Shown here: piece by piece, positions 7,007-64,000 of the stretch | How positions within the stretch are numbered: position 1 is the stretch's first letter | Layout: each line of letters begins with the position of its first letter | From: Squalus acanthias | Taxonomy: Eukaryota | Length of the DNA stretch: 64,000 nt | Reading direction: 5' to 3' | NCBI GenBank assembly: GCA_030390025.1 | Contig: CM059432.1 | Coordinates: 21,020,001 to 21,084,000 of the forward strand | Position numbers and translations under genes: made by a program | Notes under the pieces: generated by a model | The model's database searches: none | Told to the model about the DNA's origin: nothing | The model's input: only the letters and a program-made list of their open reading frames with translations

Positions 7007-8769
7007 GTAAGTCCTTTTTATATATATATTTTTTTGGGGGGGGAGGAAATGTTGCATTAGTCTCTGGGAAAAAAATATATAAAACATGCAGGTAAATTCA
7101 TTGCAACTCAATGCAACAAAGCAAGGGACATGCTAGCTGTGATTGGAGGCTGACATTTCATTTTTTTTTATATATGTGTATGACTGCTGCATCTATTAAG
7201 AAGCTAGAATTTACCATGGCTCCTGGCATTGGAATGAATTGCAATCAGAATTTATTAAAACGTTCTATCCAGATGCTTTCACGTGATATTAGGCTGAATT
7301 GTTATTTTCTGTGGTCACTGTCTTCAAATATATATAGGAGTAAAATGGTTAAACACACACAAATATTGGCAAATGCAAATCTGTTTTATGCATAAAGTAA
7401 ATATGTTCGAATGGTGGGTGATATCAGTGCACACCTTCCAGAATATTAAATTTCTTATGTGACTATAAATGTATTACACATGTCATCCAGAGCATTTCTA
7501 AACTAGGTATAAACTGATTGTCAAAATTAAATTCTTATTTGGTTGCACAATATTCTCATCAGAATGTTCTTTAATGTTATTGTGAGTATTAATACTTCAT
7601 GTGATTTGGTGCGTTGTATACACAAATCAATTGCTTATTTATAATCAATGCAAATGGACTTGATAGTAAATATAATTGATATTTATTCAATAAGTCAGTG
7701 TTGATCTAGAAAAAAAGTCATTTGACACCAGGATGGTAAACAGTGACACAGTTATAAGATAAACGTCTTCTAAATGTTGGACCATATGTGTGTGTTTCTC
7801 TTTCTACCGAATTTAAATGAACAGCTAACAAAACAATTGTGAGTTTGGGCATCACATGTGTCAAGCACAAGCTCATTCTTTCTTCAAGTGCTATACATTA
7901 TAATAGCGCACAGGGAAGTGAAACTTTTGTGGTCAGCTGTACATGTTAAATGTAGACAAATGATTCTCAATTACATCAACTCTGACGCCAATATAAAGAA
8001 AAAGTGTAAAACTATTTAAATTCTCTTTGGCTGTCTATTGCTAATGGCATTGGCCATTTATGTGAATGGATGTGTCATGCACGAAGAATAAGATGGATGC
8101 TGGTCATGATGTCAGATAGATGCTGCTTAAATAGCATCTAAAATATAAGTTAAATGCACTATAATGTTTCAGAATATTGCCTTGAATTATTATTTATTAT
8201 ATAAATTTATTATTTATTGGTGAGGGATCATGAGATACTGCAGCAAAGGAATATTGTTTTGGTTTTATAAACAAGTGATTGTCACACTTTATATAATTAT
8301 TAATGTTAGCTATTAATGCTTCTGATACTAACTAGACTTAAATGGTGTTGCATTTAGATACATTTTAATTAATGATTCTTGTGTAATTGAGTCTCCAGTT
8401 TATCAATGTTTGCTTATGTATGTTTGTATCTGTATTTTTCTGTGACCTACAGCAATGACAGTTATCCTAATAGTTGTCATATGGTGACTTGTATATTGAA
8501 AAATGGCAATTTTTTTATGCACGTGATACCAAAATGTAATTAATATATATGTAATTATATATATCTATATAGAAACAAATAGACATTTTAAATGAATAGA
8601 AAAGAATGAGTATTGGACCGGAACAAGGCATTTTCTTATGTGGAATCTGCCAGTTGGTATATGCTAATGTGAATGTGGAATATTGTGACTCTAGCGTCAA
8701 GCAGACAAATTAGTTTGTGCATTCAGAAGACAGATTTTTTGTGTATGAGAAATGAGTAATAGTATAAAT

Positions 8770-8960
8770 AAGGACAGGAAATGCAAAGCAGGTCAGGCAG
8801 CATCTGAAAGAGAAAGATGAATTATAATTTTAGGTACGACCTGAAGTTCTGTTGAAGGCTCAGACCTGAAATGCTAACCCATGTCTTCCACTTCAGATGC
8901 TGATCAACCTGCTGTATATTTCCAGTTTTTTCAGCTCTTGCTTAAGACTTCCAGCCTTTG
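8770..8960. mobile_element. Inverted (palindromic) pair of Penelope-like ends, old
   Basis: agcaggtcaggcagcatctgaa...ttcagatgctgatcaacctgct arms are related to 46500-46600 in both orientations. Confidence 0.65.
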
Positions 8961-9907
8961 AGGGTTTTCCTTTTTATCTCTACCAGTATAATAGGCAGTA
9001 TTGGCAGTTCATTTTCATAGCAAACGTGTGTTTGACTCTATTAATTATTGCTTGCCTAAGTGGCCTATAACTCTGTGGAACAAATTATGATTACAATCAG
9101 CTTGGCTTTTTGCAAAGTTATTGATTGTGAGAGGAAAATGATTCCGTCAAAGGAACAACATTACTTCACTGCCATTGTTGGTACTAATCAGTTTTTGATA
9201 CCAATGATCTTTTGGTACATTAAAAATATATAGGCAGTAAGGGTCCTGAGTAAAATGTCTCAATCCAGCTCCCAGTGAGCATGGGCCAACAGCACAAAAC
9301 TGCTCCTAATTTGACATAATTGACAATGTCACTCAGAGAGGCCACAGGAGATAGAAGTATCACATTAGTACAATAGGGATGAATTTCTGAAGTTATGGGG
9401 ATAGGGCGGGAAAGTGGAGTTGATGTAGAAGTTCAGCCATGATCTTATTGAATGGCGGAGCAGGCTCGAGGGGCCGCTTGGCCTACTCATGCTCCTATTT
9501 CTTATGTTATTATGTTCTTAAGGCTGAGGCCCATTATTGGGGTAGAGCAGAAGGAATTTTACTTTGTAACTAACTGCTACACGGACCTCTGAATGCTTGA
9601 TGTTTAAAGTGAGAGGGTGCTTCATTCCCTATACTAATATCCCTCAACTTGTTTCCACAAAATCTACAAAATAAACTATGTATATATTTGTCTCCCCAGG
9701 CATTTCATAGGCTGCCCCATGAGACAGACATGATCAAAATCATGGTTGAGTTTGTTGTCAGGGTTACACAGTAGGGGGTTAGGACAGAAATGTACTGAAC
9801 ACCAAAAACAAATCCAGTATTTTTCATTATTTAAAAAAATATATTCTTTAGCGGACCTGGCAAAATAGATCACTTGCAGTTACTGCTTGGTATTCTTCAT
9901 AGTATTC

Positions 9908-10363
9908 TGTCACCATGTCTCAGTTGGTAGTCCTCTCCGTTCTAGACCCAAAGATTGCTGGTTTGAGTGCCACAGCAGGACTTGAGTGCATGATTTAAGT
10001 TGACAATCTAGTGCAGTGCTGATGGAGTGTTACCAGGTGGAAGACAGAGTCTTTTGGATGAGATGTTAAGTGGAGGTTTTAACCTGTTCAAGGGAGCATT
10101 GAAGATCTCATTCTTTGAAGAAGAGCAGGGAGTTCTCTTGGTGCCCTGACTAACATTTCTCCCTACTTCAATAACAGCAAGAAAACAGAATAACTGATGT
10201 TTGTCTCACTGTTGTTTTGGTGAAATTGCTGGTGCAGAATAGGTGCTGCCTTTGCCTACATTACAACAGTGACTACACTTCATAAGTACCTCATTGGCTA
10301 TGAAGTGCTTTGGGAGGTCTTGAGGTCATAAAAGGTGCTATATAAATGCAAGTTCTTTCTTTC
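9908..10363 (+). mobile_element. DeuSINE (SacSINE1-like), decayed
   Basis: Collinear with 51728-52162. Confidence 0.8.
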
Positions 10364-10604
10364 TATAACAGCAGTCATTCCATTCTGAAAGTGATTCATA
10401 GTGTGAAGTGCTTTGAGATGTTTCAATGGTATGGTAAGGATCTTGATGAGTGCTAGTATTTTGTTTTGTACATATTTAAAATCAATGTAGGGCTGTAGGT
10501 TCTCGTGTCAGACCTATCATCTTGGACCTAAGGTGGACAGGACGCTGCAACTGTGCATTCTTTCGAACTGCATGACACAGTTTCCCCAATAGTAGTAAGC
10601 ATAA

Positions 10605-11037
10605 AACTTGCATTTATATTGTGCCGTTCGTGTTTTCAGCATATCCAAAAGTGTTTAATGGCCAATTAATTATTTTTGACGTGTAGTCTGAACAACGTGC
10701 AGATGTTATGTATGCACACATGGCAGCCAAGTTGCATGCAGGAAGGTCCCACAAACACCAAATGAGATAAATGATTAGTTAATTCTGTTTTGGTGTTTTT
10801 GGTTGATGGATAAGTATTGGCCAGGACACTGGTAGTACTCCCTGCTCTTCTTCAAATAGTACCATGAGATCTTTTTTGTCCACCTGACCAGGCAGACTCT
10901 GTTTTACATTTCATCCAGATGGCAGCACCTCTGATGGTGCAGCACTCCCTTGGTACTGCATTGACGTGTCATCCTAGATTAGATACTCAAGTGCGGTTTG
11001 ACTCAGAGGTGAGAGTGCTACCACTAAGCCAAGCTGA
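10605..11037 (-). mobile_element. DeuSINE (SacSINE1-like), decayed
   Basis: Reverse complement collinear with 51728-52162. Confidence 0.8.
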
Positions 11038-11634
11038 GACTGTAGGTGTCATCCATACACAAATGCGTTGGGCTCATTACTACTTTTGACCCTACACAAA
11101 ATTAGGAATTTGGTGGACCAATGGTGAAGAAAAATAAAGAAGAAGTTATTTATTTTGATTTGCACTATCCGGAGTTTGAAGGACAAGACACCTCTGCTGC
11201 TTGGTGAAACTATTGGGAAAGAATGCTGGATCTATGTGGGAGGTGGACTCCTTCCCCGTCTCAGCCAGGTTTTGCTCTCTAGGGTTAATCTGGCAAATAG
11301 GCAAACCAGCAAACTTTTTTGTTCAAAGAATTCCGAGTGGTGACATCAGTCAATCTTGAGAAGTTAGATCCCTTAGCTGAAATTCCAGCATTTTAGTGTT
11401 GAGGATACCAGCTTTTTAAAAAGTAAAATAATAAATAAATAATGAAAATACAATATTCATATTTTCCAGTAATAAAATACATAGACGCACAGCCAGCATG
11501 CTACAGACATCAAATTGGCTTGGTGCCAAGACTGAATGTGTTCTTGCTACTTATATTTAAAAAAATATTTTGATATGGTATGTTACAGATGAATATTTCA
11601 GGACTGGCCATATGAGTCCCAGGTATTATTTGGG

Positions 11635-12450
11635 AAATGCAATAAACAGTGAGGAGGATAGTAACAGACTTCAGGAGAATATAGACAGAATGGTGAAATG
11701 GGCAGACACATGGCAAATGCAATTTAACGCAGAGAAGTATGAAGTGCTGCATTTTGGTAGGTAGAATAAGGAGAGGCAATATAACCTAAATGGTACAATT
11801 TTAAAGGGGGTACAGGAACAGAGAGACCTGGGGGGTTTACAAATCTTTGAAGGTGGCAGGACAAGTTGAGAAAGCTGTTATAAAAGCAAACGGGATCCTT
11901 TTAAGTACAAAAGCAATGAAGTTATGCTAAAGCTTTATAAATCGCTGGTTAGGCACCACACTTTAGGAAGGAGGCCTTGGAGAGGGTGCAGAAGAGATTT
12001 ACGAGAATGGTACCAGGGATGCAGGACTTCAGTTACACGGAGAAACTAGAGAAGCTGGGTTTGTTCTCCTTGGAGCAGAGAAGGTTAATGGGAGATTTAA
12101 TAGCGGTGTTCCAAATCATGAGCAGATAAGGAGAAACTGTTTCCAGTGGCAGAAGGGTCGGTAACCAAAGCACGCAGATTAGGGTAATTGGTAAAAGAAC
12201 CAGAGGTGAGATGACGATAACTTTTTTACACAGCAGGTTGTTATGATCTGAAATGCACTGCCTGAAAGAAGTGGTGGAAGCAGATTCAGTAACAACTTTC
12301 GAAAGTGAATTGGATAAATACTTGAAGGGGGAAACGTTGCAGGGCTGTGGGGAATAGGCAGGTGAGTGGGACTAATTGGATAGCTCTTTCAAAGAACCAG
12401 CACAGGCATGATGGGCTGAATGGCCTCCTTCTGTGCTCTATGATTGTATG
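11635..12450 (+). mobile_element. CR1 LINE 3' fragment, decayed
   Basis: WADTWQMQFNAEKYEVLHFG and a CR1 3' UTR ending ctatgattgtatga. Confidence 0.9.
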
Positions 12451-14859
12451 ATTTGTACAATACTGTCTGGCGCTCCTAATCAAGTCATTGCTGTAATAGA
12501 CTTTGCCTTGTTTCAAACCGATCCCACACTGATGCAGTGAATGCCTCTGCCTACTGGCATCACACAAACATGCCCCTGTCTTGGCATTAATTGGCATTAG
12601 AGAGGCCACAGGATGACTGGTGCAGGAAATGGAAAAAAATACTACATTAGTGAATTAGGGCTACTTTACCAAGGATGGGGTGAGGCTAATTGTTAGGACA
12701 ATGTAGGGGTAGCTTCACTCTCCATTTAGCCATGCCATACCTGACCTGGCAATGCTTCATGCTGGCATCCTAGAATGGGGTATGCCATTTTCCAGTGCTA
12801 ACATCCTTGGCCTTGGTGAGCACAAAAATAGCATTTAGTTAGCTTTGTAAACAGAAGTGTACAGTGGCGTTATTGATGTGGCATCACTGACTGATCTAGA
12901 ACGTTGGGTTCTCTGAGGTTGTCCTCCTCTTTAAACTATGTTGCAGTACTTCATGCTGCGGTAAGTGTAGCATTTGTTGTGGCATAAATGTGCCCAGCAG
13001 CAAATATGAAGCAGAATTTTTGTGGCAATCTTACTGACTGATCTGGAAGCTGAGCCTGTCTGAAAACTCATAAAAATAAGATGTATCCCTTTTATAAAAG
13101 ACGGCCAGTAGGACAACCATTTTCAGATAGATTGAGACATCTTAGCTTTGCAATGACTGCAATATTAGCTAGAAACACTTAACACATTGACATGCTATTC
13201 CTTTATTTTAATGTGGCGTTAACTGATTTATTTTAAGTGGGTTGATGCCTCCTTCAGTAGAACAGGCAAAGAATGTCATATGAAAACTTAGCGCATTCAT
13301 ACGTTGATATTGCAGACAGTAATTTTTAGGATCTTCTAGATCACTTGTTTAATTACATTGAAACCTGTCTTAAGGGCCATCTGCTGAGAAATCTGTAATC
13401 TGATTAATCAAACTTGAACTTCGGTATGGCGTCTATTTTTGGAGACTCTATGAAGTTGTTCTTGAAGATGATCATTGTTGGCATCTTTTGTTGTTATCAA
13501 GTAAGAACTGAATACCGTGTAAATTTCAATAGAATTATAACGTAATTAGAATTTATTAGAGAATGTATATCAACTATTGTAGAATAAACATATACTGAAA
13601 TGTTTTGCAAAAGGTAGAGGAATGTGGAGGGTTATGGAGTGTGAGATAGATCGCATCTTCCTAACTTGTGGAGAAAATGGACAGGGTTTTTTTCCATAAA
13701 CTGAAGTATTTGTATTTACTGATGATTGGAAGCCCCATTACTAAAGGAAGATATATGACAATAAGGACAAAGTGAGAGGGGGGAGGTAAAGAGAAGAAGG
13801 GAGGCGACATTAAAATAGAAAAATGCAGGGATCCAGAAGGTTGATATTTGCCTGCTATTCCACCCATTGTGCATTTTTGATCTTGGCTTTTGATTGGAGT
13901 GGAAGGAAGGTAATTCTGCACAAGTAGGGGAGAATAACAATATGAGTAGGTTTAAGGGTGGTTTTTCTGTTGAAAAATGTTGGGTGCTATGGTCAAAGGT
14001 GATGTGAAGAAACATAAAGGGAAAAGTTACGTACAAGTATACTGTTTTTACAGCATAGTGGATTGAAGTACAGATCCACAGCAGTCTTGAGACACAGAAT
14101 TGATCCCACCACACTGTTGAGTTCCTGATCTTGGCTGTGCCACTGTGGTAAAGTAGATGCGAGGCAATTTCCCACTCTTCTCCCCGCCCCTCCCCCTTCA
14201 CCACTGACATGGAAAATGTGAAGGAGCCATGCTGTCATATCTCTCCAAGCAGTTGCCTTGTAACAGCAGAAACTTGGGAGTAGACCCCTCAACCTCCTAA
14301 GCATAGTCTTTACATGTCCCAGTGATTACCTGTCCCAGGGACAGGGAAAGAAACAGAGCGGAAAAATGAAACTACCAGGTAGAACTGATTTGACTGTTAG
14401 TTTAAGCTGTTCAACTCAGTGGTTTTCTATGCTGTTGATCACTTTGAAAACAAAGACCGTGTAATAAGGAGTGTATCAAAACAGTTGTTTTCCATCTTCA
14501 AATCCTTGAACTCACAATATTATGAAATTGCGCTTTGAGCCTTGGCACTCATTATTGGTGCCAGATCATACACTACACACACCTAACTGTGTCTGTCAGG
14601 TACAGACGTTGATGTCAATACAGTGTTCTCTCACTAACATATTTCTACAGAAAACCAATAATTAAACTTCCTTTCTATCACTTAAAGGACATTGTACACA
14701 TATATCCAACACAATCACTTACTTAACTGTGATGTGATAGTGAAAGCAACACCATTGTTGAGAACTCTAACATGGGGAGTGTTTGTTATTTTTTTAACTG
14801 TAGATCTTTTTTCCTTCAGTCCCTAGTTGACCAGGTAAAGCTTTGAGGCCCCAAAGTAC

Positions 14860-16510
14860 ATAGGAGGACAGGAACAAGTGTAGGCCATGCAGCTGCTTGA
14901 GCCTGTTCCGCCATTCAATTCGATTATTGCTGATCTGTATCTCACCTCCATTTACCTGTCTTTGCTCCATATCCCTTGATACCCTTACCTAATGTAAATA
15001 TATCATTCAGAGTCTTGAAAGTTTCAATCAACTGAGCATCCACAGACTTTTGGGAAGAGAGTTCCAGATTGCCACTACGCTTTGCGTAAACATGTGCTTC
15101 CTGATTTTGATCCTAAATAGCTTAGCTCTAAGCTCAAGATTATACCCCCTTTCACTGTATTTCCTCGCCAGAAGAAATAGTTTCTCTGTATTTATCCTAT
15201 CAAATCCTTTTATCATGTTAAAGATCTCGATTAGATCCCTTCTCAACCTTTTAAACTCAAGGAAATACAAACCAAGTTTATGCAGCCTGTACCCATAATT
15301 TAACCCTTTAAGCCCTAGTATCATTCTGCTGAATTTGCGCTGAAACCCCTTAAAGGGTAATACTGTATACCTTTCCTGAGATTCGGTGCCAAAAGCTGAA
15401 CACACTACTCCAGATGGGGTCTGTTCGAGGCGATGTACAACTAATGCCTTTTGACAGCCTTGGCTCAGAGGTAGCACGCCCCCTTCTGAGTCAGGCCCCA
15501 CTCAAGAGACTTGAGCATATAATCCAAGCTGACACTTCAATGCAGTACTGAGGGACTATTGCAGTGTTGGAGATGCTGTCTTTCGGATGAGGCCCCGTCT
15601 GTCCTCTCAGGTTTAAAAGATCCCGTGGCTGTATTTGAAGTAGAGCAGGGAACTACTCCCGGTGTCCTGGCCAACATTGCTCCCTCAACCAACACCATTA
15701 AAACAAAACAGATTATCTGATCATTAATCGCATTGCTGTTTGTGGGATCTTGCTGTGCGTAAATTGACTGCCGCGTTTCCCTACATTACAACAGTAACTA
15801 CACTTCAAAAGTACTTAATTGGCTGATAAACGTTTTGGAATGTCCTGAAGTTCTGAAAGGCACTATATAAATGCAAGTTCTTCTCTTAAAGCATCACTTA
15901 CTCACCTTTGCATTCCAAACCCCTTGAGATAAAGGTCAAAATACCATTAGCCTTTTTGATGACTTTTTGTACATGTGCACTAGCTTTTAGTGATTTGTGT
16001 ACTTGGACACCGAAATCCCTTTGGTCCTCCCCAGCTACCAGTCTCACCATTAAGAAAATATTGTGATTTTATCTTTTTCGGATCCAAAGTGGATGACCTT
16101 GCATTTCTCCACATGGAACGCCAGGTGCCTTAGTTTTTCCCACTCAGTCTGCCGATATTTCTTTGTAACTTCCTGCTCTCCTCTTCACATACTTCTAACA
16201 GTGCCATCTGCAAACTTGGATATACAACTCTCTATTCCTTCGTCCAAGTAATTAATATATATTGTGAAAGGCTGAGGCCCCAACACAGATCCCCGAGGAA
16301 CACTTCTTGTTACATCCCGCTAATCAGAGAATGAGCCTATTATCTCTACTCTGTCTCCTGCTTCCCAACCAGTTATCGACCCATGCCACAAGGTTACCTC
16401 CAATTCCATGAGCTCTCATTTTTGCTCATAAAATTTTGTGCGGAACCTTATCAAATGCTTTCTCAAGGTCCATGTAGACACTGCCCTATTCACCACACTA
16501 GTGACTCCTA
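14860..16510 (-). mobile_element. CR1 LINE fragment, decayed, interrupted by a SINE at about 15451-15885
   Basis: Minus-strand CR1 C-terminal motifs (RLRRDLIEIF, FTQSVVAIWNSLP) and RT remnants (gcatttgataaggttccgca on the minus strand). Confidence 0.85.
15451..15885 (+). mobile_element. DeuSINE (SacSINE1-like)
   Basis: Collinear with 51728-52162; inserted in a CR1. Confidence 0.85.
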
Positions 16511-19179: not shown

Positions 19180-19868
19180 GTCACATAATTTGCGACCCCT
19201 ACGGGTGTGTACGATTGCTCACGCGCCTGTAAGGACTGCGCAACTTCCGGGTTTAGGCATGCGAAGCACATGCGCGAAAACCCAGAACTTGCGATCTGTC
19301 AAGACAGATCACCTGCGTCCCCGGGAAAAGGGCCTCCGCGGGCAGAGAGTTGCGCTATTTGCCCAACTTCTGCCCAGCAAATGCCCTTGAAATTCTTACG
19401 CCTGGTAAAAGCAGCTGTAAAGCGATTTAAAAAATAGAAAAATAAAATGTTATCACTCATTTATACATTAACAACCCTGTCCAATAAGGCAAGTTTATTT
19501 TTCGCCCCGTTAAAACATATACTTTTTTTTTCAAAAAATTAAATTTTTGTTTAAAATATTTAATTAAATGGCATTTTAATTAATTTTAAATAAGTAATCT
19601 TAAAAATGTGTTTTTTAAGTGATCCCCACTCAAACTTCCGTATGTACGGAACTCCCATAATTATGAATGGGATTCCCCTTCTTTCATTGGTTGGGCAGGC
19701 CCACGTGATCCCAGGGGCGCTTGCAAACCGCCTGCGCCCCTGGGATATGTGGGCCTCTATCTGCGGGTACCCAGAGAGGCCCAGGAGTGCGAACCAGGTA
19801 AATTCGTAGATCTTTTGCCGGTCGGAGGCTTCCACCCGCGGGAAGCCTCCGACCGCAAATTTTGGGTC
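19180..19868. mobile_element. Non-autonomous DNA transposon (probably Harbinger-type MITE)
   Basis: Imperfect terminal inversion (aatttgcg / cgcaaatt), CpG-rich ends, AT-rich core, subterminal hairpin at 19819-19855. Confidence 0.6.
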
Positions 19869-20109
19869 ATTGTTTTCTTAACCTAAGCAAATCAAAGCAA
19901 GAAATTAGAAAAATGAGCATTGAGATTCGCAGCCATCTTTCAGCGTGTGCATGTACACAGGGACTGTTGTCTCCACTTTCAGTGAAATGGCTACTCATGC
20001 ATTATCTAACTGATTTGGTTTGAGATAAAATCAGAAAATGCTAGAATTGCATTGGAGGCCCTTCTAAATTGAAAATAGAAAAAAACACAGGTTAATGTTT
20101 CGGACAAAG

Positions 20110-21245
20110 AGCATGTGCTGTCTTCCCCATCTCACTAGCCACCCCTCACACTCACCCTCATCCTTGTCCAATCATGCCAATTAACAACACACAAGGGTAG
20201 GCACTTCGGTGTTTTATGCAATGTTCATGTAAAGTTTCTGTTAATGTGGTGTGAAACATTGAAACCTTTATTTTCAACACTTTACCTTCTTGGACAGATT
20301 TGTGTGCACCTTTGGAAGTGTCTTAGTCAGTTCCGGTGAATGGTGAGACATAACGTCCCTTCCCCCCAGTGGTGATGAGTGTGAAAGGAATGGCTTGGAC
20401 ATTGTAGGGATGGTTTATGGTGTTGGTGTGGGCTGGTGCCAACCTGGCACATCATGTGGCAGCCAGGGTGTACAGCGCCAAGTGAAGTAAATCTGGCCAT
20501 GGTGAGGTCATCGCTGGCGTCCCGGGCAGCAAAGTGGTCGGGTGCTGATGCCCTGTGCCCTGTGCAGCATCAGGTGATTGTGGAGAAGGTTTGTGTTGTT
20601 GTTGGTGCTGCTGGTGTGCCTGGTGATGTTGGTGTTGGAGCTGATTGTGATGGGATTCTGAGGATCAAGGTGAGATTTTTTCAAGAGCACCGATGCTAAT
20701 GGAATAGATGGCAGCTGAAGTTGAGATGACAGAAGCAATCTGTCAATGGTGAGAGAGGTTGCTCCAAGGAGGTGACAGTGGATAGAGAGATTACTCCAAA
20801 CACTTCCAAACTGCATACAGCTCAAAAGTGCCTTCCAAATCCTGATGGCTCAAGCTTCTGACATTGGAAAGTAAACAGCTGTGAAATGGTAGCTTTTATA
20901 CCACTTTTGCAGCTGTCACCTATTCACAGCAATGGAGGGTCATTGAGAACCCAACACACTTACCTGATGTGCTCCCCGAGCGACGGGAACCTCATGGAAA
21001 AGTTGGAAAAATGACTAGAAGGTTGTAAAATGCTGTTCAACTGCCTTTAAAGACCCTCTTAACTATCTCAATTGGCTGACCCGCCACGTAGTGCCGGATC
21101 TACAAAGCGCAGGCAGACCCCGCACTTGGGAAAATGACACGGAGACGGGTTCAGAGTGGGATCCCGACCCGCTGTCAACCTTTTAGATTTTTGACAGCGG
21201 ACCCGCCTCCGAACCCGCCCTCTGAGCGCCGGCAAAATTCCGGCC
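20110..21245 (-). mobile_element. Harbinger internal-deletion derivative related to the 55372-57873 element
   Basis: Terminus ggcaaaattccggcc; the minus strand retains the transposase N-terminus (Q/H-rich, PDAAQG) fused to the C-terminus (DHFAARDASDDLTMARF). Left boundary uncertain. Confidence 0.75.
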
Positions 21246-21431
21246 AGAGTGTGTGATGTCTGAATGTGATGGATGCATACTGGACGCAAGATTTTATTTT
21301 AATATTGGTCATTGTACTGTGGCATTGCAGACAGGGAGGATTAGACCAAGTGTAGTCTTCAGATAAAGCAGGGTTCCAGAGTGGGGGATAGTTGGACCAG
21401 GGCACACAGATGTATCCATTTTAAAGTCTTA

Positions 21432-22203
21432 GGCCGTGATTTTTGCAAATGGATGCGGCCTGGGAGCGGGTCAGCTGGTTTCCGGGTTCCAGTCCCGCCC
21501 CCAACTGCATCCGGCCCACGGATGTGATTTTACGTCGATTGGCCTTGTTAAGCCCGCCCTGCGGGCTTGCCGACCAATTAAGAAGAAGCCGGTCAGATGA
21601 CGTCATTTGATGACATGTCATCTGCCGGTTTTCTTAAAGTGAACCACGCACAATTTTTTTGACAGCTCATTTCTCAGTGTTTGACAGCATTGAGATAATG
21701 AGGCTGCAGGTGAGGTTACAGAAGCGATCTGTCACTGGTGAGAGAGGTTCTCCCAATTCAAAACCTGTTACCTACAGAAAAGTGTAAATACATTAAAAAT
21801 GATTTTCCCAACATTTTCTTACCTCTGAAACTTACCAGTGCACCATTGATCCTTCACACCACTTCTGCAGCTGTCATCAATGCAGAAACATTACAGCAGA
21901 CTCACAACACGCCACACTTACCTGGCGTGGTGTCTGGATGTCGGGAAACCCCAGCCAGAAGCGGCAACATTGAAAAAGAGCCTGTTAACAAGTATCAAGT
22001 ACCTGTTAACAGGCAGGTAAGTGGCTATAATCCTCTTCCCGCCGCTAGGTGTTGGGTGCATGCGCAAATCGGGGACCCGACACTTGGGAAGATTGTTTGG
22101 AGGCGGGTTGACGGGGGGTTTCCTACCCGCTGTCAATCTTTGCGATTTTGACAGAGGTCCCGCCTCCGATCCTGCACTCTTGAGGACCGGCAGAATTCCG
22201 GCC
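21432..22203. mobile_element. Harbinger-type MITE
   Basis: TIR ggccgtgatttttgc / gcagaattccggcc; flanks TTA and ATA; right end shared with 20960-21245. Confidence 0.75.
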
Positions 22204-48154: not shown

Positions 48155-48224
48155 GACTTCCAGCCCTTGTTGTGGCAACATCTGTTGGATTCACCAAATC
48201 AAAGGGATATGGAACAGTAAACTA
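48155..48224 (+). CDS. ADGRB1: ADGRB1 coding exon, TM4-ECL2
   Basis: ttattttag|GA CTT CCA...; (G)LPALVVATSVGFTKSKGYGTVN(Y); donor GTAAGT at 48225 (phase 2). I did not find the next exon in the window. Confidence 0.95.
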
Positions 48225-53640: not shown

Positions 53641-55884
53641 CAGCATAGCAGAGGAGGAGGGAAGCAGGATAAATCTGGCAAAGAGAAGGCTCCCATGGCC
53701 CAGGAACGTGACGGAAGAATGGCAGGTAGACCCCAGTGGTGCGGAGTAGCCCGCCGACAGTGTAGCCATAGCGGATCTCCACCCCAAGCACCAGCCCACA
53801 CATCCTCCACTTCCAGTGGCTGTGCTGCAGCCATCGTCCATTACCAGCACCTGCTGTCTGAGAGGAAATGGGGATGGTTGTTAAGATCTAAAGTTGCTCG
53901 TGTTTTAATATTGTTGGAAGCTCAATGAGAATAAATTGAAAGGACATGCAAAGGATTTTTTTACTTGTGCCAATATTCTTTGGGTCTTCCATGCTAGTGT
54001 GAAGGAACCATTCTAATGCACGATCAGTCATTTGATATCCTGCACAGAATGGAGGTCTACTGATTAAAGCCATACAGTACTCAGTACCTTCTCGATTTAT
54101 TCTGTATTTGATTATATCAAACTTTAACATCTGAATGTAGATTCCGATTCAGATGATGATCTAACAAGCAGCTGCCGTACCCCAGGTAGTTCTTGGCTCT
54201 TTGTGCCTCAGCTAATTGTGACAGTTGACAGCCTGGGGCAAGGTTTCAGCCATCTATTTACCACTGAGGAGGATCCTGGCAGCCGGCCATTTTGTTAGTC
54301 TGCTCTCTCCAGACTCTCTGCAGCGATGACAGAAATAGACTTGGATTTGCTGATAGCAGAGGAGAAGGGCTGATGGAAGTCATCTCTCTTTAGTCAAAGA
54401 AACTCTGCCCTGAAAAATGAGTTCCCCGTGGCAGTAAAATCACAGGGTTACCACAGGAGTAAAGTGGATTTCATTGTTTATAATCGCACTTGCAGGGTCC
54501 TTGCTCAGATTTTATAGATGTAAAAGGGCTAGAAAGGGTCAGGTTATCTCATAGAATGTAACTGCCCTGTAGCCGTTTTTTTTTCGATGTCATGTTTATT
54601 TTGTGTATATAATTGTCGCGACTTCAAAGATAATTCATTGGATGTGAAGCCATTGCTGACCTCCTGAGGACCCGATAAGATGCTAAATAAATGCAGGTTT
54701 CTTTGTTCATTCTTTATATAGGTTTTCCACCAACTCGTGGAGCCGGAGTCTTAACTGACTTAGCCAACTTCTGTTTGAGCCTGAGCAGTAGACACGCTGA
54801 CTTTCTTTGTTGGTTGGCAGCCCTGAATGCTTGCTCATGTTGAGCCTTGAACACCTCAAGACTTTCATGCAGGTGACAAGCACATAGGTTGTACAGTAGT
54901 ATAATTTCATTATTAAGGACTTGAATATTTGCAGAGTTTTTATCTACACGACCATACCACTTGAGGTATCAATCACTCTGTGAGTGAAGACGTGCTTCTT
55001 GACATCAGTCCTGAACTTGTCTTTTACCAGTTTGTACCCATGTCTGTTTGTCTTGCAAACACAGCATAACTTGAAATAGGGCTCTGGATGAACCTTTTCC
55101 ATTCTACTTCATACCTTTTATAAACCTGTATAACATCCCTTCATAGTTGTTTCCTTTCAAGACTTAAGAATCTGAAGGGGCGATTTTTTAACTCTGCCCA
55201 CCCGGCAGAAACCAAGCAGGCAGTTAAAATCGCCCAGGAGACTTACCCGCCAATGTCATCGAGACCTGACTGCTATTTTAACCAGTGCCCTGAGCGAGGC
55301 GAATGTGGTTTCTTCACTAGGTCAACCTAGCGGAAAGAAAAGCTGGAGCCAGAAGATGCCCAGACATCCAAGGGGGCGATTTTCTGCCGTCGGAGGAGGC
55401 GGGTTTGGCGGCTGGAAAGGTGTTAAATCAGATTCAATGAGGGCGGGTTCGGAACCCGCCTCCGTGGGATTTTGCCGGTGCCGGTTTTGGAGGTCGGGAA
55501 ACGGTCCCGCCTCTAGCTGGCCGTAGCGATAATTATGATCATTAAATGCTCATTAAGGGCCTCTCTAAGCCTATTTTGAGAGGCCCTCGTGATTTTTCAA
55601 GCATTTCGGCGTGCTTCACGCACCTCCTAAACCACGCCAGGTAAACCTGGCGGGTTGATTCGTGGGTGGCCTCCTCACAGCTGCAGGTCCAACAAGACAT
55701 CGTTTATTGCCTCAAGGAATACTTGCAGGTGCCAGACCTTTGCTTTAAAAGGTCTCTGAGCACTTTTAGAAGGCCTTGCGAAGTAGGAGGTGCTGCAGCT
55801 TGAATCTATCAACTGTGGGACCTCCTTGGAAGACCCTCTCCGCTTACAATGAGCGCTTCCCCAAAGGAGGCATCTACAAGCAGC

Positions 55885-57161
55885 ATGGGAACCATTCATT
55901 TTCTGTCACCATGGACCTCAGATGAGGATGAGGACCATCCAGGGCAGCAGCAGAACCAAGCAGCTCAGGAGCAACAGCAGCAGGAGCCCCAACCTCCTGC
56001 TCAGCCATCTGATGCTGCACAGGGCAGAAGGCGCCAGCGCATCGAGGCACCTAACCGCAGGAGATACCCCCAACAGAGAGTTTACAGACAAAGGATGAGC
56101 TACCTCAACATGAGTAAGCAGCAGTGCCAAAGGAGGCTGAGACTTTCAGGAGAGGTTGTCCGAGAGATTGCGGACTGCTGCAGCAAGACCTTGTGCCCAG
56201 AGGAACGGGTGGACACCCCTTACCAGTGGCCGTCAAAGTCACCACCGCACTCAACTTCTTTGTCTCAGGCTCCTTCCAGGGATCATCAGCAGACAACAGC
56301 GGCATCTCCCAGTCGACCGCCCACAGTTGCATCACACAGGTTACCGATGCCCTTTTTGCTAAGGCCCACAATTACATCCAGTTCACAAGGGATCAAGCAA
56401 GTATAACCGCCCGTTTTGTTGGCTTTGCTAATATGGCAGGCATGCCAATGGTGCAGGACGTCATAGACTGCACACATGTGGCCCTTAGGGCAACCCATCA
56501 CAACCCAGCTATCTTTGTCAACCGAAAGGGCTTCCACTCCCTCAATGTACAGCTGGTGTGTAACCACAGGAAGGAGTTCTTGCATCTTTGCGCCAAGTTC
56601 TGTGGTGGTTGCCATGACTCTTTCATCCTGCGGCACTCTAGTGTCCCTCCGCTTTTCAATCCATCAAACCAACTTAACGGATGGCTCCTTGGTGACAAAG
56701 GCTACCCCCTGAAGAAGTGGCTAATGACGCCGATCAGGAGGCCAGCTAATGAGGCTGAAGAGCTCTACAACGCCAGCCACACTTCGACCAGGTCCATCAT
56801 CGAGCAAATCATTGGGTTGTTGAAGATGCGCTTCCGTTGCCTTGATCGATCAGGTGGAGCCCTGCAGTATACACCATACAGGGTCTCCAGAATGGTTGTG
56901 GTCTGCTGTGCACTGCACAACATCGCACCGTGTTGTGGCTTGCAGCTTCCTGATGAGCAAGTGGCTCAGTTCCAGCCCTCCTCAGATGAGGAGGAGGAGG
57001 AGGAGGAGGAGGAGGATCTGGAAGAGGAGGAGGAGGAGGAGGAGGAGGAGGAGCAGGAGGAGGTCAGAGTGCCAGTGTATTCACCACCAGCAGCGACAGC
57101 ACGCGAACACATGGCTTCCCGGGATGCAAGGGATGAACTTATGCTGGCCAAATTTGCATAG
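55885..57161 (+). pseudogene. H1 Harbinger DDE transposase with a 1-bp frameshift near 56169
   Basis: RVYRQRMSYLNMS..RRLRLS.EVVREI joins CGLLQQDL...; motifs [50 protein letters not shown]; poly-E tail. Confidence 0.92.
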
Positions 57162-57342
57162 GTTGCCCAAGTTGGCACATGTCCTTGGCTCCATCCTAGG
57201 ACATCATTGACAATGGACATGACTCTCTGGCCTCCTTTCACTCAGGCCACCAACCTGACATCGCAAGTGTGGCGGAGCCCGCAATGTGGAGCTGCCTAAG
57301 GCGAAAGAACAGATGCCATAACGCCAACATTTTGGCTTCAAA

Positions 57343-57588
57343 TCATTTTAATGCTTTCCAACAGGGATGGCATTTCATCAATACACATAAACATTCTCCC
57401 AATCTGCACACAGATCTGGAGGTTATATCCCTTGCCAGCTGTACCCACACAGCCTTGGTTTCTTTGGCAGGCCTCTTCCTCCCAGATGAGTGGAAGAGCA
57501 CCTCCATGCTAGCTGTCACCCCCTCAAACAACATTTGCAGCGCCTCATCCGAGAGCCTCGGGGAGGCCCTTGGCTTGGAATTGGACAT
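57343..57588 (-). pseudogene. H1 Myb/SANT-like DNA-binding protein, truncated by internal deletion
   Basis: PRLSDEALQMLFEGV....VLF...GRKRP.....W.QLA..ITSRS aligns to the N-terminus of the H2 Myb domain; homology stops after ITSRSV. Confidence 0.8.
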
Positions 57589-58228
57589 TGTGGTTTCTCA
57601 GAATATGTTGCAGGTGGTGCAGCATAGGCAGAAATGCTGTGGAATGAGCCAAGGCAGCAAGAAGCCATAAAATCAGACTGGAAAAGTGCTGTCAACAGAG
57701 GCGAGTTTCAGTCCCAAAACACTAATTGACCAAGGGCATCCCACACCTCTGAAATCAAGTGGCCAATCAAGGGAAAAATCGCAAATTCTTGAAAACTATC
57801 AGTGGAGGCGGGTTTCAAACCCACCCAAACTGAAACCTACCTCCATCTTGCCTCCAGTGAGAAAATCGCCCCCTAAGATTTTAAACTTTATTTATTACTT
57901 TGCTTGTGGAGCAGGAGTTCCCGGCGGTGGCTTCCTGTCACCCAAGATTCAACTCCCACCCTACAGCGAGCTGCCACTACCCCCCCCCCCCCCCAGTTTT
58001 GAGATGCAGCCCAGAAGTCACACTGCCACCAGTTGTGGCCTCCACACGCCCGAGTTAAAATTGGGGCTTCATTCATCTTTCTCGCCTTTCCTCATTACTA
58101 AGTCCTTAGCCTTCAGACAGTTTCTGTGGCTTGGAAGTTTTCTTTGTTGACCAGAACTGACCGCAGTACTCAATGTGTGGCCTGACCACAGCATTCTAGC
58201 AGCTTCAGCATGCTGTCTTCAGACTTAT

Positions 58229-58763
58229 AGATCCTGATCTTGACAGGGGCAGGCTGCGTAGGCTGGGGTGGGGGTGGTGGGGTGGAGAAAGTGGAGGGTT
58301 TCCCTGCATGGTTAACTCCACAGCATGCGTAGTATTTTTTTGGTAAGATCCCCTCCCGGAAGTCAGCCTGATTGACAGGCTTGGCTTCCAGTTGGGCGGG
58401 GAGCACTCCGGAGCAGGCCGCAGCCCCAGGTGAGGAGCCTGCTGTTGCTAGTGGGGGGGGGGGGGTCTGATCCCCAACCCCTGGGTAGGTCCGACCCCCG
58501 ACCCGGGGGACTGGGCGGGGCTGTATCGGGGAGCTTATGGGGGCCGGAGGGAAGCACTTGCCTTCTCCCCGAAACTGTCTTCACCTCTCTTCAGCTGTTG
58601 GGTTTCCCGAGGCCTTGGAACCCGGCCGGGTAGGGTTAAACCTCCAAAGCAGGATAAATCGGAGGCTGCCAGCGTCATTAAAATATTTAATTGGCCATCC
58701 CGCCTCCTGGCCTTGCATCTCACCCGACCCCAACCCATCAGATTTCGGGGGTTAAGATTCAGC
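58229..58763. mobile_element. Harbinger-type MITE
   Basis: Ends cctgatcttgac / gttaagattcagcc; GC-rich with cccgcc/cccgacc motifs; interrupts the old CR1. Confidence 0.55.
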
Positions 58764-59743
58764 CTGTGCTCTGTTCATTTTGTAATATAGCTCATCGTTC
58801 TGTTTGCTTTATTGTTACAGTTGGACAATGGCAAGGTGTGGTAAGCATTGGGTCTCCTTCCAGGCCCTGATCTCCTTCACCCCTTTCTCTAGCTAGTTGA
58901 ACACCATATATTAAATATGTCTTCCAGTGTGTAGTATCTTACACTTGACTGTATTAAATTTCATTTGCTATTGTTCTGTCCATTTTATATTTTATCTGGG
59001 TATTTCTGTCGGTCCTTGGCTGCTTCATCAGATCAACTACCCCGACTTTAGTCCTCAAATTGTATTGTACTGCAACTTTGAATCCAGCTTGTTTATGTAC
59101 ATTAGAAATGATAGGCACGCCAACAGTGATGTGTGGGGCACTCCACTCAGTACATCTGCCCAGACTGACAGGACAGTTCCAAAGGGCTAGAAATTAGTTA
59201 TCGCCAAGAAATGGGCAGTGTTTAGACTAAAAGGGGTAAAAATTCAGTTGGTTGCGCCTCCCGTTAGCGCCTTAAGAGGGCACTAATGGGGCGCAAAGCC
59301 GCTAACGCCCGGGCGCAGCGATGTTTGCGCCGCTCGAGAACTTAACTAGAGATTGTGCGGCGGCGCTAAAACTTACCGCTGCGACCACCTGCGCGCGCAG
59401 ATTGTGACGTCATTCCATGGTGCAACGCCCTTGTGGCGCCCCGGAGCAGAAATTGAGTGGCGCCCCCTGCCTTACCGCCTGGCGCATCCAACGACCAGAA
59501 GACTGGAACGCTATCAATCGCTGTGGGGCTGGGGGGGGCGCTATTTAAAGGGGGCCTCTTCCTGTCTTTTTCTGTGGTCGACATTTATGCACCACTCGTT
59601 CTGAGAGAGAGAGAGAGATTCGGAGAGAGAGAGAGAGAGACTTCTACATTGACTCAACGCTTTGTGAGGTAGTTTTGCCTATTGATCCTAACTTTGTTGC
59701 TACTTTAGTTGCTGTCCCTCATTACTTTGCTTGCAAAGAGACT

Positions 59744-60897
59744 ATGGGGGCTGCACTGATTGGGGGCGTCGTCCTGCTCCAGCTGAATCGGAGGATACAG
59801 AGACGCAGAGAGAGAGAGTGGCAATGATGGGCAGACGGAGGAGGGCCATCAGGCGTCTGTACAGGAGAGCTGACCCTCCCATGGTATATCGTGAACAGCT
59901 CTCCTACATCCATATGTCCGAGGAGCTGTGTTTGCGAAGGCTGCGATTCAGCAAGGAGGTGGTCACTGAGCTCTGCCACCTGCTGCAGCCAGATCTGCAG
60001 CCTCAACTGAGGTCCAGGACGTCTCTGTCGGTGGCAGTGAAGGTCACAGTGGCTTTGAACTTTTACGCCACTGGCTCATTCCAAGCTGCTGTTGGGGACC
60101 TCGCCAATATCTCCCAGTTCGCGGTGCATTGCTGCATCCGGCAGGTCACAAATGCCCTCTTCAGAAGGAGACGAGAGTTCATCTCTTTCCCTATGACCCC
60201 AGACAAGCAGCGTGACCGCGCTCTGGGCTTTGCGAGGGTAGCGGGCTTCCCCATGGTGCAGGGCGCCATTGACTGCACGCATGTGGCTTTGCGTGCTCCG
60301 CGTGAGAATGCAGAGGAATTCAGGAACAGAAAGGGGTTCCATTCCTTGAATGTCCAGTTGGTCTGTGACCACAGACAGCTGATACTCGCTGTCAATGCCC
60401 ACTATCCTGGCAGCTGCCACGATGCTTTTATCCTGCGCCAGACTACTGTGGCAGAAGTTTTCGAGGCACCGCATCAGCCAGTTGGTTGGCTTCTCTGGGA
60501 CAAGGGGTATGCATTGAGCACCTGGCTGATGACACCGCTCCGTACGCCCAACACCCCTGCTGAGCTGCGGTACAATGAAAGCCATCAAGCAACCAGGAAC
60601 ATTATTGAGCGCACAATTGGCGTGCTGAAACAACGGTTCCGCTGTCTGGACCAATCTGGAGGAGCCCTGCAGTACTCGCCTGAGCAAGTATCGAACTTCG
60701 TAGTCGTGTGCTGCATGTTGCATAACATGGCAATCCTCAGGACCCAGCCAATGCCACCAGGCCTTGGAGCACCACCAGAGGAGGAGGAGGAAGAGGCCGA
60801 GGACGATGATCATCAGCAGCACTAAGGCGGGAGGGCGGCCCACAATGGTCAAACTGCAAGGGCCGTCCGTCAACGGCTAATAGCAAGCCGCTTCTAG
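59744..60897 (+). pseudogene. H2 Harbinger DDE transposase, nearly intact
   Basis: [57 protein letters not shown]. Inferred ATG 59744 is out of frame across an (AG)6 run; in-frame ATG at 59824; TAA at 60823-25 lies 23 codons before the likely natural end RQRLIASRF-TAG. Confidence 0.9.
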
Positions 60898-61191
60898 GGC
60901 CCCTGCCATTGCTACCAACATTAATCAACCCAGCACGCAACCCCTAAGCCGGCCAAGGCACCAATAATTCCAACCACCAGCCATGTATATTTTGAATACA
61001 GAAACTTATTTATTTTACAAACTCTGTGTGTGTCAATTCCTCATGACAAACTCATAGAAATAAACACAAAAAAACAGTCAATAACATAACTGGTTCTCAC
61101 AACCTGGAGATAATGTCCAAAACACTAAACAAAAGTTGGACCATGAACCTCGGCCTTCAATAAAAAAATGACCAGCATTTTGTCACACCTC

Positions 61192-63176
61192 CTACTTTTT
61201 GCCCTTTGAGGGTGATCTCCTTCCCTTGCGCACTTCCCCCCTTCTAACCCTACTGCTCCTCCGTAATGGGACCTCAGTGGCTGCAGCAAGGCTGGTGGAA
61301 GGCTGCTGCTCGTCAGACCCTGACACTGCAGATGCCCCTGAAGGACGGCCTCGACCACTTCTGGGCCTGGAGGGCCCGGCTGCAGACTGCACCAACTCTG
61401 CATGGGCGGCAGCAGTCTGTCCTACAGGCGGTGGCAAGTGCAGTGGAGAAGTGACAATGTTGGCAGCAGGAATGCTGTCATCATGAGAGAGGACAGCAAC
61501 TCCCTGCTCGCCCGACACACTGGCACTCCCACGGGGCAGCACTTCAGCATCCGGAGCAATCTGCCGGAGAACAGATTGCTGGCCTGCTGCGGCGCGGTGA
61601 CAGCCCCGGGGACATGTGCACGAACCATCGAGGTTGGCAGCAGTCTGTGCTCGCGTGGCCTCAATCTGAGTCTGTATGAGAGCAGTCAAAGATGGGATCA
61701 CGGCAGCCAGTGACTGAATTGCAGCACTAAGCATTAGTGTGGCATCCGCCTGTGCTACAGCGAAGTGCTCCACACTCCTTGCCAGTGACTCAATGCATTC
61801 GGGCACCCTTCCCACTGCACCCATGAGCTCAGTGTGCATGCCCACCGCCTGGGTGTTCATTTCTGTGATCAGCCGCTCCTCCTCTGCATCCATTGCAGTA
61901 GGAGTGTCTGGCATACTCTCCCTCTGGGGAGAAGGCGCCCGTTCTTCCCTACCCCCCCCATGGCGTTGCTGCAGCCCGCTGGGTCCTGGAGCTTCACCCT
62001 CATCAGCCCCTTCCCCCCTGCTCCCCTCCGGGAAAGGCGTGTTCCCAGTGTGGGCATGGGCTTCCTCGGGAGAGGGTGGCACTGATGCTCCGGCTTCCTC
62101 TTCCTCCTCAGCTGCAGCATCACTCCCAGTGGCAGCTTCAGGGCCCGTCTCCTCAGCTGGTGAATCACCATCTGAAAGCAGGGAGGTACAAGAGTGGCTT
62201 TAGCGTGAGGACAGGGTGGCAGTAAGGGAGGAATAAGTGCAGCGAGTTAGCAAGTTGGATTGAAAGTGTCAAAGGCTGGTGTTGTGAGGGACAAGTGGAA
62301 GGACAGAGGACAAAAAGGTGATGATCTTACCATTGCTGTCCAGAACGGGGTCGGCGTCTCCAGTGGCGAAGGGACCGATCTCCCGGCTTGCCACAATCCT
62401 GTGGACGCGCTCCTCCAGATCGCTGAGGGGTTGCAGCTGAGGCCGCCCTCCACCTGTCCGTTGCTGCTGTCTCCTATTATGAGCCAGCTTGGCCTGCAAG
62501 AAAAAGGACAGCATCTGAGTAAATATACAGCCATGGTCTTGCCTGATGTGCCTCCCATAGGTGACTAGCCCTTACAATATACAGCCATGGTCTTGCCTGA
62601 TGTGCCTCCCATAGGTGAATAGCCCTTACAATATACAGCCATGGTCTTGCCTGATGTGCCTCCCATAGCTGAATAGCCCTTACAATATACAGCCATGGTC
62701 TTGCCTGATGTGCCTCCCATAGGTGAATAGCCCTTACAATATACAGCCATGGTCTTGCCTGATGTGCCTCCCATAGGTGAATAGCCCTTACTGTATGCAA
62801 AGTGTGGAATGTGTGTGTGTGTTTGATGAAAGGGCCATAGGTGTTGGATGAGTGTTGTGCATTGGGGTTTTAAGACCCTCTGGCCATAGAGTGAGGTTGA
62901 GATGGAGGGATGGAGAGGTATTGAGAAAAAGCCACTCACCCTGACGACCCGAGTGAGGTCGTTGAACTTTTTGCGGCATTGAGTATGGGTCCTGGGCACC
63001 ATGCTCCTGGAGGAGACGCTCTGAGCCACCTCCCTCCACATTCTTCTGAACTCGCGTGGCAAAGGCCTCCTGCCACTCTCAGGGAAGAGCATACATCGTC
63101 TGCGCTCCACTGCGCCAACCAGAGCATCCAAGGCCCGCTCGGTGAAGCGATGAGCGCGTTCTCTCACCCTCTCCAT
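61192..63176 (-). CDS. H2 Myb/SANT-like (Myb_DNA-bind_5/NAIF1-type) protein, 3 exons (63176-62940, 62493-62331, 62171-61192), 459 aa, open
   Basis: MERVRERAHRFTERALDALV...WREVA..VSSRSMVPRTHTQCRKKFNDL; GTGAGT/CAG and GTAAG/CAG introns in compatible phases (0 and 1); exon 2 AKLAHNRRQQQRTGGG; 1380 nt with no internal stop. Confidence 0.88.
62522..62791. repeat. Minisatellite, 5 x 54 bp, in intron 1 of the H2 Myb gene
   Basis: Unit aatatacagccatggtcttgcctgatgtgcctcccataggtgaatagcccttac starting at 62522, 62576, 62630, 62684, 62738; only single-base variants. Confidence 0.97.
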
Positions 63177-63843
63177 GCTTGGCAGCAAAATGGATTCACA
63201 GGTCTCTCCAGGCTGAGATTCAAGGCTGCAATGAGCAGGGTGTGGCTGGGGAGCAAGTGGCCCCCCCTGCTTTAAGAAGTGGCCGGCGCCGGTGTGTCTG
63301 TGTTCCCTCGCTAACTGGCAGCAGCTGTGCTGCGCTCGCGCGCTGAGTTAGCGCCTCACTCCTTGGCCTTTGCACCTTAAGACAGGTGTGCAGCGCCTGC
63401 TTTAGCGCTCCACTCACCTCCCGGGGCGGTAAAAGTGAAGTTTCCAGTCAGTGCCGATAATTAGCGCCAGGCGCTAATTTTTGCGTCCAGACGATATTTG
63501 CGCCCCAAGTGGGGCGCGACCTAATTTCTACCCCAAAATGTTTAAGTAGCCAGTTGAAAATCATCTAGGATGCACATAAAATTCGTCCTGACTCCTCATT
63601 AAAACGATTGCAGTCATGATTCTAGTCTAAAAAGCTCAAGCTCATTGACGTTACACTGAATAGATGGACCAATATCGGGGGCAGTCTAAACGCAAGTAAT
63701 GATTGCCGCAGACTTTTTTCACTACTTAAAGGGGAGTTTCATTGATGCTGCAGCACCTCATTCTCAGCATTGTTGGGTGTGCAGCTGCCTCAACAACAAT
63801 AAGAAGAAGGACAAGGAGAAGGAGCACTTATTTACAAATCCTG

Positions 63844-64000
63844 ATGGCAGATCGCCGCCCCAGGGTGAGATTCCGGAGGTTTTCCGATGAAGATTTGGAG
63901 GCATTGGTTTTAGTGGTGGAGAGAAGGCGGGCGGTCCTGTACCCGTCAACTGGCAGGAGGCCCTCGCCACAAGTCTGCCGGACTATGTGGAGGGAGGTGG
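63844..64000 (+). CDS. H3 Myb/SANT-like protein, N-terminus (runs off the window)
   Basis: MADRRPRVRFRRFSDEDLEALVLVVERRRAVLYPSTGRRPSPQVCRTMWREV, clearly homologous to H2 Myb exon 1; not in the ORF track. Confidence 0.85.
   Translation, partial: MADRRPRVRFRRFSDEDLEALVLVVERRRAVLYPSTGRRPSPQVCRTMWREV

Follow-up and report, generated by a model that had tools for sequence, protein, structure and literature searches.

The window analysed here is a stretch of 64,000 nucleotides from Squalus acanthias (G000:C8:21020001-21084000, in a 3.7-Gb genome), and it carries part of an adhesion G protein-coupled receptor (GPCR) gene together with a dense cluster of transposable elements of the PIF/Harbinger type. 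Exons of the receptor gene occur at about 6750, 23611, 30565, 38490 and 48160 and the next one lies some 25 kb past the window end, so that the cluster sits inside an intron of about 41 kb. The initial annotation had placed it in an ADGRB1 intron; the adhesion-GPCR intron stands by its flanking exons, and the seven-transmembrane (7TM) region of the product is recognised, while ADGRB1 itself is an assumed name that agrees with the human proteins, the paralogue being putative (a PDB search for naming the ADGRB paralogue returned no ADGRB 7TM match). As had been proposed, five Harbinger-type insertions divide an old CR1-type long interspersed element (LINE): H1, H2, H3 and two MITEs (miniature transposable elements with inverted repeats), MITE-A and MITE-B. 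Two of them are cases of one Harbinger within another, H1 within MITE-A and H2 within H3 at 49 bp from its left end. It is likely that this nesting reflects the abundance of Harbingers together with recognition of a short palindromic target, and not an attraction of the elements to their relatives.

Table. Features of the cluster and of the host intron boundary, in window positions (E, expect value; ORF, open reading frame; TIR, terminal inverted repeat; TSD, target-site duplication)
Feature	Position	Strand	Evidence
Adhesion-GPCR (ADGRB-type) exon 5' of the cluster-bearing intron	48157..48222 (ends approximate)	+	next exon some 25 kb past window end
Old CR1-type LINE, ORF2 C-terminal piece	54920..55168	-	tblastn E 3.8e-6 against LINE ORF from L031
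MITE-A, old and probably Harbinger-type MITE, left part	55177..55371	+	relatives 74-89% over short pieces; alignment
H1, 2,502-bp Harbinger deletion derivative	55372..57873	+	TIR GGGGGCGATTTT at both ends; triplets CAA/TAA; relatives 90-93%
H1 transposase, frameshift near 56168	55849..57161	+	PF13359 E 1.4e-35
H1 Myb/SANT remnant	57409..57588	-	PF13873 E 0.0015, covering 3-54 of the 78 profile positions
MITE-A, right part	57877..58067	+	alignment with relatives' 3' half and right TIR
Old CR1-type LINE, middle piece	58151..58219	-	blastn E 3.4e-6; tblastn E 0.001
MITE-B, old and probably Harbinger-type MITE	about 58230..58765	+	relatives 572-609 bp, TIR GGGCTGAATCTT
Old CR1-type LINE, reverse-transcriptase piece	58920..59162	-	tblastn E 4e-10
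H3 left end, 49 bp, closing with left target half and AAA triplet	59184..59232	+	H3 copy comparison
H2, 4,302-bp two-gene Harbinger	59233..63534	+	TIR GGGGTA(A/G)AAATT, TSD AAA
H2 transposase, 386 aa in intact copies	59744..60897	+	PF13359 E 9.5e-38
H2 Myb/SANT gene, three predicted exons, open 460-aa frame	61192..63176	-	PF13873 E 1.1e-7; predicted splicing
54-bp tandem repeat, first intron of the H2 Myb gene	62522..62799	.	within H2
H3 continuation, T at +4 completing the palindrome; Myb exon 1 (ATG, as first placed) from 63844	63538..64000	+	runs to G000:C8:21084804

The PIF/Harbinger identity claimed at the outset is borne out by matches of the transposases to PF13359 and of the Myb/SANT genes to PF13873, by the TIRs and by a 3-bp duplication, and H2 has all the marks of this group (PHIS), with a DDE_Tnp_4 transposase, a Myb/SANT gene, TIRs and the 3-bp duplication. 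The description of the cluster as two-gene transposons is right for H2, which alone within it is a complete two-gene element, and wrong for H1 and H3, in which Harbinger gene remnants lie between TIRs and which are both non-autonomous deletion derivatives; H3 belongs to a 1.4-1.9-kb family with Myb exon 1, a transposase tail and little else. Both nestings are real, as first described, because H3 copies elsewhere read through the H2 point and MITE-A relatives cross the H1 point. Most of the 29 fetched H3 copies join a left end of 46-49 bp directly to the sequence found here from 63535, and 11 of the 29 hold the exact 22-bp empty site; relatives of MITE-A continue through the H1 insertion point in alignment and finish in the same TIR-like motif. 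A right end is visible in 17 of 29 other H3 copies, and the copy in the window ends 804 bp past it against a LINE fragment. The extension of the window that had been advised for locating the right TIR and TSD of H3 gave no right TIR in 30 kb downstream, by pattern and BLAST searches. Since identities to the nearest relatives (about 70-85% for MITE-A and MITE-B, 91-92% for H3, 90-93% for H1 and 98-99% for H2) rank the events, the likely order of insertion is the CR1-type element, then MITE-A and MITE-B, then H3 and H1, and then H2.

The H2 family is young and large. The genome has 7,802 exact matches to its 26-bp left end. The sample used here consists of 90 copies taken in order of position, out of 100 listed; all are within the first 40 Mb of contig C1, and a few near-duplicate loci are among them. 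Short forms of 726-898 bp make up 59 of the 90, with a perfect triplet duplication in 45 of the 59, and 19 of 20 long copies traced to a right end measure 4.1-4.4 kb, with a median pairwise identity of 98.7% and identical flanking triplets in 17 of the 19. In 8 of 30 copies the transposase frame is full and none of the three motif blocks is missing, and both genes are intact in two of the 19 complete ones, L045 (with L275) and L050 (with L280), which are candidate autonomous elements. The window copy differs from 29 others in its transposase by a frameshift in a GA run near 59810, a G-to-W change beside the second catalytic D and a stop at 60823, and it is predicted that a normal supply of transposase by this copy is no longer possible; it may have been mobilised, or have decayed after arrival, while sister copies supplied the enzyme. 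Its Myb gene, with exons predicted at 63176-62937, 62493-62331 and 62171-61192, is convergent with the transposase. The nearest protein relatives of H2 are shark and ray entries for 'putative nuclease HARBI1' (best identity 70%), and among the 120 relatives listed the first named non-elasmobranch stands at rank 75, so horizontal transfer is not suggested by them. A domesticated HARBI1/NAIF1 gene, which would be single-copy and lack TIRs, was considered for H2 and is ruled out by the thousands of TIR-bounded copies. At the window locus contigs from public runs stop at or before the H2 junction, and the intron of the cluster holds another right end of H2 type some 6.5 kb past the window end (L031:7495-7506).

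How much Harbinger DNA there is for an insertion to fall into was estimated with a library built from the window and the fetched loci by de novo TIR scans, home-made and incomplete, with self-matches excluded, and the background was taken from twenty 10-kb stretches (L234-L253) at round coordinates on 15 contigs, chosen blind to content. Three library candidates with little support and a fourth with fragmentary matches were dropped, which moved the background from 15.9% to 15.0%, and in one member 120 bp that had been masked as LINE tail, actually the end of a Myb gene, had a negligible effect. Harbinger-type DNA so defined covers 29,968 of 200,000 bp, that is 15.0% (bootstrap 8-23%), or 13.3% without the young H2; four of the 20 loci have transposase matches and six have Myb matches. 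The cover is patchy, at 1% or less in nine of the 20 and at 20-55% in others, and one stretch holds three transposase remnants while another has a Harbinger-in-Harbinger nesting of its own.

Measured in this way the nesting of H2 in Harbingers is not enriched. Fourteen of the 90 H2 sites have a library match near the junction, and these were scored as seven nested, five adjacent and two in a LINE-tail stub within a Harbinger; even the most generous count, nine of 90 with the LINE-tail stubs added, is still below background. Control points 500-900 bp from H2 sites lie in Harbinger DNA in 18.5% of 368 cases, and the binomial probability of seven or fewer nested junctions in 90 is 0.08 at 13.3%, 0.03 at 15% and 0.004 at 18.5%. 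Samples of best hits gave junctions in Harbinger DNA in none of 29 cases for H2, one of 29 for H1 (in a library member later dropped) and none of 29 for H3. The general homing to related elements that the initial annotation had drawn from the cluster is thus not supported, and a nesting frequency no higher than random, which that annotation had itself named as counting against it, is what was observed. The nested H2 copies in L155, L180 and L206 all lie in the AT-rich centre of a single 764-bp Harbinger-type MITE family.

What H2 does favour is a sequence. A logo made from 119 left and 59 right flanks shows that H2 sites share a palindrome of about 19 bp, TTAAACAC-TWA-GTGTTTAA (matrix consensus TTAAACAC-TAA-GTGTTTAA, 7.9-8.6 bits), and it is symmetric, with A at -4 in 92% and 88% and with A at -4 and T at +4 each at about 90%. 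Left flanks have C at -1 in 62% of cases and right flanks in 75%, and the central triplet is variable (T 56%, W 94%, A 53%), TWA being the commonest. Because Harbinger interiors score poorly on this matrix, the motif-weighted expectation for the nested share is 5.7-6.5%, with which the observed seven in 90 is consistent, and all six nested sites seen from both sides have matrix scores of 942-16,244. Outside Harbingers repeat positions are also used again and again, 23 of the 90 sites falling in three positions: an octamer tail of a LINE (11), the start of a LINE ORF (7) and the tail of an element like a short interspersed element (SINE) (5), these labels being provisional. The SINE-like position is filled at 681 loci and empty at 56,448.

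Some further features of these reused positions may be set down here. The octamer-tail sites, in a CR1-type LINE, are L148, L158, L169, L170, L176, L188, L191, L199, L202, L219 and L226, further H2 insertions in the CR1-type 8-bp repeat tail are found at L036, L041, L043, L051 and L055, and at L148 and L219 the adjoining tail repeat unit has been taken by a second Harbinger family. The sites at the LINE ORF2 start (L150, L174, L189, L190, L209, L212 and L227) are at one position and in both orientations. The SINE-like tail on C1 frequently occurs as inverted pairs with 50-250 bp spacing, L172 and L173 being such a pair, each with a short form of H2.

The same preference is met with at the position in H3 into which the window copy of H2 has gone. 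Position +49 is the top-scoring H2 target in six of ten library H3 copies, and filled +49 sites were found 15 times by a right-junction pattern and 23 times by a left-junction pattern, six being common to both, which gives at least 32 loci. All the fetched hotspot matches are H3 copies (12 of 12 by right junction and 19 of 19 by left junction; four of the 23 left-junction sites, having no resolvable right junction, were excluded, and two of the 15 right-junction sites were left unfetched). An identical H3/H2 junction at many loci is what would be expected if a single composite of the two had been copied around the genome and the repeated junction were one event. However, the inserts vary in length (about 0.6-4.3 kb), in orientation and in subfamily (72-98% identity to H2 or to its short forms), and the filled H3 hosts are scattered over a star-like tree, of which the topology alone was used, on long separate branches interspersed with empty copies; from these two features it follows that the hotspot insertions are independent events, and the composite explanation, already largely refuted, has hardly any probability left. 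A local hotspot had been offered in the initial annotation as the alternative to homing, and this part of it stands in a sharper form than proposed, at one nucleotide of H3; a hotspot for the 9-kb region as a whole is unnecessary, though it may exist.

A single base near this nucleotide separates filled from empty copies. Most H3 copies have G at +4, a base that disrupts the most conserved position of the motif, and the window copy has T, which raises the site score to 9,000 from the 280 it would have with the usual base. Among left-junction sites, which were selected regardless of the +4 base, 12 of the 19 that are filled and resolved have T at +4, versus three of 382 exact empty sites (odds ratio 217, P 7e-16; odds ratio 180 after removal of the window copy and one degraded junction), the empty sites having G in 367 cases, A in 11, C in one and T in three. 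With fill rates scaled for pattern length, and with predictions made from the H2 matrix and a number of insertion events estimated at 72,000-160,000 from 27 ends in 456 kb, G sites are filled at about 1.2% versus 0.5-1.2% predicted, where uniform insertion predicts 0.003%. A complex of transposase and Myb protein would then read the target palindrome at integration, as reported for Harbinger3_DR, and the T at +4 in the window copy of H3 would have arisen before H2 inserted.

Several observations weigh against so plain an account. T sites are filled at about 72%, above the 16-32% predicted, and the SINE-like control outside Harbingers at 1.2%, below the 3.5-7.6% predicted, so that the use of the H3 site, relative to its motif score, is several-fold that of the control. 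Five of the 90 H2 insertions lie 20 bp or less from another Harbinger end (one being a tandem copy), Harbinger cover is 90% inside the cluster versus 3.8% in the rest of the window and a maximum of 55% in the blind samples, and the 90 sites come from one contig's first 40 Mb and were judged with an incomplete library. On the H2 matrix the site of H1 reaches a score of only about 22, its right half fitting and its left half poorly; H1 has its own, similar, target logo (28 flanks), and for its nesting in MITE-A plain chance may be enough, Harbinger DNA being so common.

The excess at H3 and near other Harbinger ends, with two of the 90 insertions in H3-like left ends, is what would be expected from tethering, in which Myb proteins bound to subterminal motifs of resident Harbingers pull insertions to nearby target-like sites on top of the sequence preference. 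Repeats of the TAGCGCC/GGCGCAA type are suitably placed for this, with five at the left end of H2, four at the right and none in the middle 3 kb, and one such motif in H3 at 12 bp from the hotspot, and the Myb protein of Harbinger3_DR is reported to bind subterminal motifs in the accessible part of PMC9710019. Yet the nesting is at or below the genome fraction of Harbingers and equal to the motif-only expectation, the differences in fill could be due to host repeats of different ages, and the candidate motif beside the hotspot, damaged in the window copy, has been kept intact by 10 of 26 filled sites and by 15 of 29 empty ones (P 0.42, a weak test), which speaks against the Myb-guided homing first suggested. 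Tethering is therefore unlikely, and it is to a similar degree doubtful that Myb-guided shark Harbingers, beyond reading the palindrome, are led to the ends of resident Harbingers and treat the H3 position as a dedicated safe landing pad, which would make H2 a eukaryotic DNA transposon homing on its kin, for all that some 70% of the best-match copies are filled; the residue between observed and predicted fill may come from repeat age or from matrix error.

A regional effect, in which this segment of the intron readily receives or tolerates insertions and elements of any type accumulate, would account for the contrast in cover between the cluster and its surroundings, for the patchiness of the blind loci, and for a further Harbinger-type end at 59080 in two related organisms and a further repeat tail at 59129 in one sample. 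But most of the cluster's cover comes from two long elements in a region picked out at first reading for its density, control points 0.5-0.9 kb from H2 sites barely exceed background, and the reuse of one nucleotide is left unexplained, so that a regional effect is quite improbable as the explanation, though it can act jointly with the target motif. Abundance and recognition of the palindrome remain the preferred reading, and the cluster is real but largely ordinary, as a Harbinger-rich genome would yield.

The flanking triplets of H1 differ by one mismatch; its transposase frame has one additional base at 56168 in related contigs, and its Myb exon is broken off mid-domain with the downstream exons absent. 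Most close relatives of H1 (L065-L093) have in common the loss of about positions 563-1609 of H1 and so have a form of 1.35-1.5 kb. L242:473-4733, from the blind sample, is a two-gene Harbinger of 4,260 bp that belongs to another family (TIR GGGCTGGATTTT), at about 78% identity to H1. MITE-A and MITE-B, probable Harbinger-type MITEs, are multi-copy, with relatives whose TIRs start GGG, and neither is tied to an autonomous partner. In MITE-B the left TIR has decayed and no TSD is recoverable in the window, where the triplets have decayed; flanking triplets are identical in one of four MITE-B relatives. A second patch of Harbinger-type matches lies at 19486-22167, in an earlier intron of the host gene.

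The split LINE, putatively of the CR1 clade by its motifs, is represented by three ORF2 pieces that are collinear on the minus strand and is interrupted by MITE-A, MITE-B and, on its 5' side, H3. The Harbinger-type end in the two related organisms (runs X6 and X7) is at 59079-59080 in the same old CR1-type element, 100 bp from H3, and is not in the window. The extra short-repeat tail in one sample (runs X2 and X4) is at 59129-59130, with unique flanks 1-2% divergent from the window, and is apparently a presence/absence difference of a retroelement.

The hundreds of H3 copies amount to a natural saturation experiment, in which one base 4 bp from the cut separates sites that are rarely used from sites that are mostly filled, and the +4 contrast supports sequence readout by vertebrate Harbingers. 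Recurrent insertion at the same site also urges caution in taking shared Harbinger insertions in repeats as markers free of homoplasy. The H2 family, being young, preferring a long target and having two-gene copies that are intact, is a candidate tool for site-biased integration that would need no reconstruction.

A genome with Harbinger-type DNA at about 15%, if that value is true, would far exceed what fish papers give, where cartilaginous-fish Harbingers are, in the portions available, deemed scarce or lost. The accessible text of PMC9179366 gives 0.002-0.14% in teleosts and none in elephant shark, PIF/Harbinger elements are present in whale shark in what is available of PMC8455134, and in grey reef shark the excerpt of PMC12498223 has them present with all DNA transposons at 1.58%; our own figure is from 200 kb, with a home-made library and a different and looser method. 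Tourist-like MITEs, for example MtPH of Medicago, are short and non-autonomous, with TIRs and 3-bp TSDs, and nest in older copies, and repeated use of a single nucleotide, a feature of H2 and H3, is not mentioned for them in the part of PMC2213677 at hand. By target alone H2 would be assigned to the NuwaII group of the PHIS superfamily, described in the available sections of PMC4482050 as elements of 4-5 kb with two ORFs, TIRs that begin with GG and the target C|TNA|G, since C at -1 and TWA-like triplets predominate at its sites; unlike that description the triplets of H2 are variable, and those sections do not report NuwaII from cartilaginous fish. A CWG duplication of the NuwaI/Harbinger3_DR type does not fit H2, with C as first base in 18% and G as last base in 13% of 119 sites. 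A literature search, covering few subscription journals and no Repbase Reports, brought up nothing published about the target sites of shark Harbingers or about nesting at one and the same site.

The zebrafish element Harbinger3_DR, reportedly the subject of Sinzelle et al. 2008, permits a comparison by target, and not by sequence relatedness. Its target is given as AAACACCWGGTCTTT in the accessible part of PMC3016246, and in that of PMC9710019 both proteins are required, the one of Myb type binding to subterminal motifs in the donor. H2 is like it, as far as those texts go, in pairing a DDE transposase with a Myb-like partner and in having a long palindromic target, AAACAC-CWG-GTCTTT in Harbinger3_DR and (T)AAACAC-TWA-GTGTTT(A) in H2, and differs in a central triplet that is TWA-like and not CWG. 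The likeness suggests that the zebrafish target motif is common to cartilaginous fish, and what H2 adds is a preference deduced from insertions that occurred naturally, in a family that is much larger, and with a natural contrast of one base.

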